Positions 34,447 through 34,529 of a stretch of DNA of 64,000 nucleotides are shown here, piece by piece. A program made the position numbers and the translations under genes. The notes under the pieces were generated by a model, which searched no databases, was not told the DNA's origin, and was given only the letters and a program-made list of their open reading frames with translations. Numbering within the stretch: position 1 is the first letter of the stretch; each line of letters starts with the position of its first letter. The stretch is from NCBI GenBank assembly GCA_001777665.1, contig MFEQ01000006.1, positions 213,442 to 277,441 of the forward strand, given 5' to 3'. This DNA comes from Candidatus Doudnabacteria bacterium RIFCSPHIGHO2_02_FULL_42_25 (GTDB taxonomy: Bacteria; Patescibacteriota; Doudnabacteria; UBA920; O2-02-FULL-48-8).

Positions 34447-34529
34447 TCTACGAACTTACGAATTTTTTACGAAAGTACGAACTAGAACTAATCCTTTCGT
34501 ATTTTCGTACACCTTTCGTACTTTCGTAG
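34447..34529. repeat. TACGAA x4 / TTCGTA x4 multi-stem palindromic element in the groES-groEL spacer (paralog at 62815..62895)
   Basis: tctacgaacttacgaattttttacgaaagtacgaa...ttcgtattttcgtacacctttcgtactttcgtag, with a near-identical architecture in the ftsA-ftsZ spacer. Confidence 0.75.

Follow-up and report, generated by a model that had tools for sequence, protein, structure and literature searches.

Bacterial miniature inverted-repeat transposable elements (MITEs), among them Correia, RUP and ERIC/BOX, are about 80-120 bp long, end in terminal inverted repeats and contain no open reading frame (ORF). In the early mRNA of phage T7, intercistronic hairpins serve as RNase III processing signals, and in E. 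coli operons repetitive extragenic palindromes (REPs) or bacterial interspersed mosaic elements (BIMEs) act as 3' stabilisers. Genes for RAYT proteins, which are Y1/HUH transposases, are usually flanked by REPs. REPs and their hairpin-forming doublets (REPINs) are short extragenic repeats present in many copies and mobilised by RAYT transposases (PMC3116915, PMC3337134). Within 23S rRNA genes, helices 25 and 45 are the classical sites of intervening sequences (IVSs), sporadic stem-loops excised by RNase III whose origin is obscure and possibly lies in transposons (PMC4990558). Excision by RNase III at these helices is described in a further source (PMC2801512), and short inserts without ORFs have been recorded at such sites in 23S genes of the candidate phyla radiation (CPR), with no further description (PMC11270868). 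The present analysis concerns a palindromic repeat that occurs twice in a 64,000-nt stretch, here called the window, of the genome of Candidatus Doudnabacteria bacterium RIFCSPHIGHO2_02_FULL_42_25, once between groES and groEL (element E1) and once between ftsA and ftsZ (element E2). E1 and E2 are probably two copies of a non-autonomous family of dispersed palindromic repeats that resembles REPs, MITEs and IVSs, and sequence comparison favours, if not strongly, the insertion of both into formerly tight groESL and ftsAZ junctions in this Doudnabacteria lineage.

Two hexamer palindromes in the groES-groEL and ftsA-ftsZ spacers

Direct reading of the window gives the same architecture for E1 (34449-34528) and E2 (62817-62893), namely four TACGAA hexamers, a 14-nt loop and four TTCGTA hexamers. 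This layout had been described at both spacers in an earlier note on the DNA and proved exact, the coordinates then given being right but 2 nt generous. All 16 hexamers are perfect, the loops and most of the spacers within the arms differ between the two elements, and hexamer spacing is 8/11/8 in E1 and 7/10/8 in E2. Adjacent-hexamer pairs number 12 in the window against 0.06 expected from shuffles, and a tolerant four-hexamer scan of the 64 kb returned only the four arms of E1 and E2, with 20 shuffles giving 0 to 1. Five independent assemblies agree exactly on the E1 element, and five on the complete 122-nt E2 spacer; the elements are therefore not assembly artefacts.

All four flanking genes lie on the minus strand, and E1 and E2 are therefore transcribed inside bicistronic spacers. 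The co-directional groES-groEL and ftsA-ftsZ spacers are 106 nt and 122 nt long, respectively, and are filled by the elements. E1 begins one base past the groES stop codon TAG (complement of 34530-34532), and the Shine-Dalgarno-like sequence of groEL lies outside the E1 stem.

The same junctions are short in relatives. In the two closest relatives the ftsA-ftsZ spacer measures 1 nt (locus L125) and 8 nt (L126), where the window has 122 nt. At groES-groEL, seven syntenic Doudnabacteria relatives whose GroES is 88-94% identical have spacers of 1-19 nt without the element: L211 (GroES 94%, 19 nt), L212 (91%, 4 nt), L213 (90%, 3 nt), L205 (88%, 4 nt), L206 (89%, 1 nt as read and 10 nt by gene call), L207 (88%, 1 nt as read) and L208 (88%, 1 nt as read and 10 nt by gene call). 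Alone among the syntenic relatives, the more distant L209 (GroES 85%) has a 99-nt spacer with a decayed copy at the same position, which reads TGCGAA, TACGAA, TCCGAA, TGCGAA, cgg, TTCGTA, TTCGCA, TTCGTA, TTCGAA. A tail containing the Shine-Dalgarno sequence GAAAGGA is common to the window, to L209 with its decayed element and to the element-free L211. As the tail is present with or without the element, it predates the element, which was therefore gained or lost right behind the stop codon, before a pre-existing short spacer. In a wider sample of 80 metagenomic loci encoding FtsZ relatives of 51-83% identity (278 kb), chosen independently of the pattern, no locus had a cluster of three or more hexamers.

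Occurrence at orthologous sites is thus sporadic among close relatives. The proposal that the element is a conserved regulator of groESL and ftsAZ does not survive these comparisons, since absence from the orthologous spacers of close relatives, the observation that the earlier note had itself singled out as counting against a conserved role, was found at groES-groEL and ftsA-ftsZ alike. On balance, the window copies appear to be recent insertions rather than a conserved regulator of the two operons.

The element also falls outside several familiar classes. The CIRCE operator of HrcA (controlling inverted repeat of chaperone expression) has the form TTAGCACTC-N9-GAGTGCTAA and is located upstream of groES or dnaK. 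E1 is likewise an inverted repeat associated with groESL, but it lies between groES and groEL and its kind is found at many unrelated genes as well; no CIRCE match with up to 3 mismatches occurs anywhere in the window. Clustered regularly interspaced short palindromic repeats (CRISPR) form arrays of direct repeats of 23-50 nt with unique spacers of similar size, whereas the units here are 6 nt long, are separated by 1-6 nt and form an inverted pair. Rfam at gathering score identified two tRNAs only in the window, and at E<=10 merely sub-threshold miRNA-hairpin matches besides them, and a literature search gave no mention of TACGAA together with Patescibacteria. The earlier statements that the element is neither CIRCE nor CRISPR and matches no described element are borne out, and the repeat family is apparently undescribed.

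A repeat family across genomes and in rRNA

The distribution of the element was surveyed by scanning 596 Gb, one genome per species, for the pattern TACGAA-N1-3-TACGAA-N3-6-TACGAA, which matched at least 119 loci. By the authors' own estimate, a pattern with 18 specified bases has about 200 random matches in 596 Gb, and therefore only loci with a fourth hexamer in register were counted. A perfect four-hexamer arm was found at no fewer than 69 loci. Among the matches listed, 41 of the 69 carry a Patescibacteria label, spanning more than 12 candidate classes (Nomura-, Moran-, Sacchari-, Uhr-, Doudna-, Magasanik-, Sung-, Terry-, Falkow-, Staskawicz-, Nealson- and Portnoybacteria, and Parcubacteria/Paceibacterota), and about a dozen belong to Bacteroidota. 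The canonical arm is present in Bacteroidota loci L021, L053, L074, L082 and L097; others among the Bacteroidota loci are plain tandem satellites. Tandem repeats of TACGAA with a period of 8-9 nt, not the canonical arm, were also seen in the cyanobacterial locus L072 (Coleofasciculus), and plasmid records of Nostoc, Tolypothrix, Planktothrix and Dolichospermum (matches H1-H11) matched at up to 15 places per record, with 87% identity over 27 nt. These cyanobacterial matches are taken to be unrelated short tandem repeats, the plasmid ones as judged from match lists alone.

At least 26 of the elements are perfect 4+4 palindromes, and about 70 perfect single arms occur among the matches listed, some with a decayed partner and many without any. 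The arms measure 31-33 nt around a loop of 0-54 nt, for a total of about 65-120 nt without coding capacity. The canonical arm can be written TTCGTA-YA-TTCGTA-(A-rich N4-5)-TTCGTA-W-TTCGTA-G, the dominant spacing classes being 1/4, 1/5 and 2/4. Identical 32-mers are found in the unrelated organisms of L021, L045 and L120, and a 32-mer of the hexamer array, TTCGTATATTCGTAAAAATTCGTAATTCGTAG, is a candidate recognition sequence. Several genomes hold multiple copies: five in Nomurabacteria MFVF01 (L009, L100), at least eight arms in Parcubacteria JBAZBJ01, with three identical 31-mers (L050, L075) and related arms in L051, L089 and L117, four within 8 kb in L020, and three in L058 that are 90-94% identical to each other. 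Copies within one genome have identical or nearly identical arm spacers and different loops, so that the arms resemble conserved ends that enclose a variable interior, the loop. L090 has the 4+4 layout with different units, TTTGAC(A)/TTGTCA(A) and TACCAA/TTGGTA, again at intercistronic positions (1746-1822 and 3053-3281 of that locus), and upstream of ftsZ in L127 there is a palindrome of four direct and four inverted units of the GGAATTATG type. Palindromes of iterated units may be a general class in Patescibacteria spacers.

The palindromes typically fill co-directional spacers, in the order stop codon, 2-12 nt, element, 6-45 nt, start codon. The downstream gene is groEL in three further lineages, L012 (Saccharibacteria), L119 and L209 with its decayed copy; the S10 operon is occupied in L013, L046 and L100, the last having copies ahead of the genes for ribosomal proteins L4, L22 and S3 within one operon. 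Other downstream genes encode ribosomal proteins L16, L17, S20, S16 and S6, ATP synthase alpha, phosphoglycerate mutase, SSB, YchF, LigA, HtpX, PilT, UvrA and glycosyltransferases. Many copies continue past the last hexamer with GAGAA or GATAA, paired to TTCTC or TTATC at the opposite end.

Copies were also found in an rRNA operon, L058, with two inside the 23S gene and a third in the 23S-5S spacer. The 23S copies form the distal part of long hairpins at helix tips, at Rfam model positions 583/584 and 1218/1219, and their insertion points map to the gaps that span 540-621 and 1155-1234 of E. coli numbering. These two regions are taken, from their known approximate coordinates, to be helix 25 and helix 45. 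Placement at helix tips argues for a transcript that folds as a hairpin, and for an element that settles in any place tolerant of one. Because the 23S sequence of L058 shares only 73% identity with its E. coli counterpart, the 'Gammaproteobacteria' label of this locus is unreliable. The gene (2078-6187 of L058) is 4110 nt long against a 2925-nt model, and, besides the two hexamer elements, some 750 nt are inserted at E. coli position ~1951, where Coxiella is described as having a group I intron site (Cbu_L1951; PMC4990558).

From these matches the family is judged to be multi-copy and sporadic across Patescibacteria, and to occupy only places that tolerate a hairpin. The REP/REPIN systems are close in several respects: the copies are short, non-coding, extragenic and multiple (two in the 64-kb window and more in other genomes), are frequent between genes of one operon, and have outer ends CTAC...GTAG; an inverted doublet would be the replicative unit, with a long hairpin, a variable spacer and single units as remnants. 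They differ in that an arm consists of four direct hexamers with no internal dyad, whereas a REP unit is an imperfect palindrome; in that no RAYT gene was found among the 54 ORFs of the 64-kb window or near 58 copies; and in a hexamer common to more than 12 Patescibacteria classes and some Bacteroidota metagenome-assembled genomes, REPs being lineage-specific. MITEs are matched in small size, terminal inverted repeats, absence of an ORF, dispersed intergenic copies that are co-transcribed with neighbours, and presence/absence polymorphism among relatives. Unlike MITEs, the family has yielded no target-site duplication or parent insertion sequence with matching ends, and internally iterated hexamers in the arms are unusual. 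The T7 RNase III signals are resembled by the predicted intercistronic hairpin of at least two helical turns with a 4-5 x 4-5 internal loop, and by analogy with T7 and BIME hairpins the cutting or stabilisation of operon transcripts would be plausible. Those hairpins are functional and have conserved positions in their genomes, whereas the site of the hexamer element is not conserved and its cleavage is putative. As for IVSs, the copies in L058 form extended stem-loops at both classical 23S sites and share the sporadic distribution. A stem-loop replacing the tip of 23S helix 9, 25 or 45, which defines an IVS, is seen in L058 but not for the window copies, which lie in mRNA spacers rather than rRNA, and the IVS papers cited here report no members in protein-coding operons. 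Because it lacks at least one defining feature of each, the family was not filed under any single known family; it is best explained as REP/REPIN- and MITE-like at the DNA level and, by analogy, IVS/RNase III hairpin-like at the RNA level.

Predicted folding and the proposed function of the hexamers

The predicted RNA folds reach -33.4 kcal/mol (z -4.6) for the E1 spacer and -37.4 kcal/mol (z -7.0) for the E2 spacer, in support of the segmented hairpin that had been anticipated from the letters. Four 6-bp helices are predicted with internal loops of 1-2 nt and 4-5 nt between them, that is, 6+6 bp, a 4-5 x 4-5 internal loop and 6+6(+5) bp. As single-stranded DNA, both strands of E1 and E2 fold equally well.

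Whether pairing or the hexamer itself is constrained was evaluated with 44 palindromes, among the matches listed. Five of the six hexamer positions are near-invariant, and variation is centred on the fourth base of TACGAA and the third of TTCGTA (133 G:C, 9 A:T, 1 C:G, 11 G.T, 12 A.C and few others). Partner-specific compensation was not found in mixed elements, Watson-Crick pairs being formed by 39 of 68 true partners and 124 of 204 non-partners, and no sense-strand asymmetry of G.U (about 12-16) over A.C (12) was apparent. Spacer lengths of the two arms showed no symmetry by eye (4x4, 5x5, 4x5 and 5x4 are all common), and the orientation of elements relative to transcription differs among genomes. 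The variants TACAAA/TTTGTA and TACCAA/TTGGTA are no proof of pairing, because they are equally expected from a protein-binding unit in both orientations. The covariation analysis recommended in the earlier note thus gave nothing RNA-specific, and beyond the inverted-repeat layout there is no evidence here of selection on RNA base-pairing. The constrained unit looks like the hexamer TACRAA itself, for which the simplest explanation would be recognition by a protein.

Together with the sporadic sites, the dispersed multi-copy distribution makes a REP-like mobile palindrome, offered in the earlier note as one alternative, the best fit. The hexamers would then be recognition units, similar to terminal inverted repeats, for a protein acting in trans to mobilise or maintain the element, and selection does not seem to act on base-pairing as such. 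An insertion into a tight junction would survive only with a ribosome-binding site left beside the downstream start, and deletions would then tend to retain the arm adjoining that site. By analogy with the known hairpins, a transcribed element would form a segmented hairpin, equivalent to about 30 bp, in the polycistronic mRNA, and this is a plausible RNase III-type substrate because relatives sit at 23S IVS sites. Through such a hairpin the operon transcript could be severed, or the upstream cistron could end up with a protective 3' hairpin, while the downstream gene would keep its ribosome-binding site just outside. The most likely effect of the element on the host ranges from neutral to mildly modulatory, and a putative by-product effect of insertion on mRNA processing or stability is possible.

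Patescibacteria genomes are tiny, densely packed and thought poor in repetitive DNA, and a family with a shared hexamer would be notable in them, the more so if one family is wedged into essential operons (groESL, ftsAZ, S10) and also furnishes the insertions seen at the classical 23S IVS sites. The question of where IVS elements come from would then have a concrete sequence to start from, a search for the factor recognising the hexamers would become possible, and the family would serve as a strain-level marker of genome dynamics in uncultured lineages. For annotation, it would caution against taking such hairpins for conserved riboregulators of adjoining genes.

A number of observations weigh against a mobile family. 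Comparison of filled with empty sites revealed no clear direct repeat of a target-site duplication, a possible ATGA..TT..AAA..C duplicate at E2 not being significant. The families that recur within 8 kb of 58 elements are housekeeping ones only, none of them transposase-like, and no transposase domain was detected among the 54 window ORFs at Pfam E<=1e-8. The canonical arm is absent from 2.9 million viral contigs, whose three-hexamer matches are 3/3-spaced, 9-nt-periodic and coding-like, and collections of plasmids and phages gave no relevant match, only the cyanobacterial heptamer repeats and weak lactococcal phage matches. An autonomous element with the same ends and a transposase was likewise not seen in the loci of the survey (at least 119), the viral contigs, or the plasmid and phage records. 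Mobility is therefore inferred from distribution only. Furthermore, all 16 hexamers are perfect despite unrelated loops, which argues for active constraint or homogenisation; both copies are fixed in all assemblies of the species; groES-groEL is occupied in four lineages (the window, L209, L012 and L119) and the S10 operon in three; in about 15 of 19 single arms, by crude ORF calls, TTCGTAG points towards a start codon 6-40 nt off; and the sharing of one hexamer by whole classes is unlike the lineage-specific REPs. The perfect hexamers, the groES-groEL and S10 recurrence, the orientation of single arms and the fixation would also fit a host function.

The principal rival, to which a rather low probability is assigned, is accordingly a host-selected cis-acting RNA element, either a signal for RNase processing or stability or a device for translational coupling, that sets the relative output of the two cistrons. 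Its hairpins are predicted to be stable and stand exactly between stop and start codon, and many of the copies have an outer stem in which TTCTC beside the upstream stop is paired to a Shine-Dalgarno-like GAGAA. The downstream genes are often highly expressed (GroEL four times, ribosomal proteins L4, L22, S3, L16, L17, S20, S16 and S6, ATP synthase alpha, SSB and FtsZ), and the recurrence at groES-groEL and fixation within the species point the same way. However, the closest relatives are without it at both sites and manage with junctions of 1-19 nt, the pairing analysis revealed neither a G.U over A.C bias nor compensation, orientation to transcription varies, many single arms are unable to form a hairpin, copies are found within a 23S rRNA gene, and the groEL Shine-Dalgarno-like sequence of the window is outside the stem. 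A host-selected mRNA role, unlikely as it is rated, would be compatible with a mobile origin, and nothing here requires it.

A further proposal, tentative and of no better standing, is that the TACGAA (TACRAA) array is the recognition module of a sequence-specific factor common to Patescibacteria and some Bacteroidota, the palindromes acting as portable 'operon punctuation'. The factor might be an unrecognised transposase, or a sequence-specific protein or nuclease binding double-stranded RNA or DNA. The palindromes would drop into tight gene junctions and the tips of rRNA helices, be cut (or cut out) by an RNase III-type enzyme, and carry or preserve the downstream ribosome-binding site. If true, the long-unexplained bacterial 23S IVSs would be linked to a family of mRNA-borne elements.

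Binding of the arrays as double-stranded DNA operators, by an oligomeric transcription factor or nucleoid protein controlling a regulon of growth genes, is improbable. It would account for a hexamer that is invariant while spacers and loops vary, for direct repeats at fixed spacing, for the orientation-biased single arms 6-40 nt upstream of start codons, and for the identical 32-mers in unrelated L021, L045 and L120; the small regulator BldC, which binds direct repeats head-to-tail (PMC5859096), provides a precedent, as a loose analogy only. Yet copies stand in a 23S rRNA gene and in mid-S10 operon, where a promoter would not be expected, close relatives show no conservation of position, and no candidate regulator emerged. 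With loops anywhere between 0 and 54 nt long, the arms of a palindrome have no set geometry relative to each other on duplex DNA. Least likely by far is a promoter (TTCGTA as -35, with GATAAT or TAGATT after the last hexamer as -10) or an intrinsic terminator: the second mRNA-sense TTCGTA of E2 is 17 bp from GATAAT and TTCGTA-17-TAGATT can be drawn in E1, but this spacing fails in most relatives, whose last hexamer is 6-13 nt from the start codon so that a -10 box there would place the transcription start inside the gene, a consensus scan calls neither promoter nor terminator at E1, and the G+C-rich stem and U-tract of a terminator are missing from AT-rich stems with 2 G:C pairs per 6-bp helix, no U-tract after E1 and just U4 five bases past the E2 stem, the genuine GC-rich terminators being located further downstream, after groEL and ftsZ. 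The operator, promoter and terminator readings all fit poorly.

Coordinates and neighbouring features

The positions of both elements, their flanking genes and other features of the window are collected in Table 1. The listed ftsA ORF begins two bases from the window end, and the full-contig gene call is 415 aa.

Table 1. Positions in the window of E1, E2, the adjoining genes and further features
Feature	Positions	Strand	Remarks
E1 whole palindrome	34448..34529		closing pair C34448:G34529 extends it
E1 TACGAA arm	34449..34481	+	spacers CT / TTTTT / AG; in minus-strand mRNA the 3' arm, UUCGUA x4
E1 TACGAA starts	34449, 34457, 34468, 34476		
E1 loop	34482..34495		14 nt; sequence unrelated to E2 loop
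E1 TTCGTA arm	34496..34528	+	spacers TT / CACCT / CT; in mRNA the 5' arm, UACGAA x4
E1 TTCGTA starts	34496, 34504, 34515, 34523		
Tail from E1 to groEL start	34424..34447	-	Shine-Dalgarno-like GAAAGGA at 34435-34441
groES	34530..34805	-	cistron upstream of E1
groEL	32777..34423	-	cistron downstream of E1
E2 whole palindrome	62812..62898		outer TTATC/GATAA extension gives 11-bp basal helix
E2 TACGAA arm	62817..62847	+	spacers C / TTTT / TA
E2 TACGAA starts	62817, 62824, 62834, 62842		
E2 loop	62848..62861		14 nt; small palindrome in itself, GGGTTAACCC
E2 TTCGTA arm	62862..62893	+	spacers AT / TTGT / CT
E2 TTCGTA starts	62862, 62870, 62880, 62888		
ftsA	62916..63998	-	cistron upstream of E2; listed ORF starts at GTG 63998
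ftsZ	61630..62793	-	cistron downstream of E2
12-mer TAACAAAGAACA	32740-32751	-	after groEL stop
12-mer TAACAAAGAACA, tandem	61598-61609, 61612-61623	-	after ftsZ stop
Intrinsic terminator, groEL	32689-32668		beyond the 12-mer
Intrinsic terminator, ftsZ	about 61595-61570		beyond the 12-mers
G/C-rich hairpins upstream of groES	34845-34935	-	CTCCCTCCCC..GGGGAGGGA and CCCCTCTCC..GGAGAGGGG
Sigma-70-like promoter	35029-35001		just upstream of the G/C-rich hairpins
Terminator-like hairpin	34962-34983		called on +; just upstream of the G/C-rich hairpins
44-nt palindrome, two copies	56610-56653, 57366-57419		TTGTCGCAAAAA-NN-ATGTAATTACAT-NN-TTTTGCGACAA
PaaX_M-domain regulator gene	56672-57346	-	
Further PaaX_M protein genes	24258-24932, 39494-40042		
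Adenylosuccinate lyase gene	55066-56496		
RHS-repeat protein gene	10236-16802	-	2189 aa
Region downstream of groEL	27700-32770		small ORFs
TACGTGT tandem repeat	32489-32515		x3.9

A second motif common to both operons is the 12-mer TAACAAAGAACA, with three exact matches and one with a single mismatch against 0.45 expected. Upstream of groES, the two G/C-rich hairpins resemble a 'ccctctcc/ggagaggg' repeat that is also present in L027 and L185. In a group of FtsZ relatives (L129, L131, L133, L134, L145, L151, L155 and L177), a TTGACA-N3-4-TGTCAA palindrome followed by a TAATAAT-like -10 box stands 60-100 nt upstream of ftsZ. A promoter whose -35 box is palindromic, or else an operator, is the probable reading, and unlike the hexamer element this palindrome keeps its position within the group.

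One copy of the 44-nt palindrome is about 20 nt upstream of a gene for a PaaX_M-domain regulator, one of three PaaX_M proteins encoded in the window, and the other is about 115 nt upstream of the adenylosuccinate lyase gene; the palindrome looks like a putative operator of this regulator. The 2189-aa protein has RHS repeats, FG-GAP-like repeats and an SpvB domain, and is toxin-like, polymorphic and large for such a genome. Downstream of groEL, the small ORFs are without Pfam matches and about 700 nt are without a long ORF; the syntenic relatives L205-L209 likewise have many small unannotated ORFs at this position.

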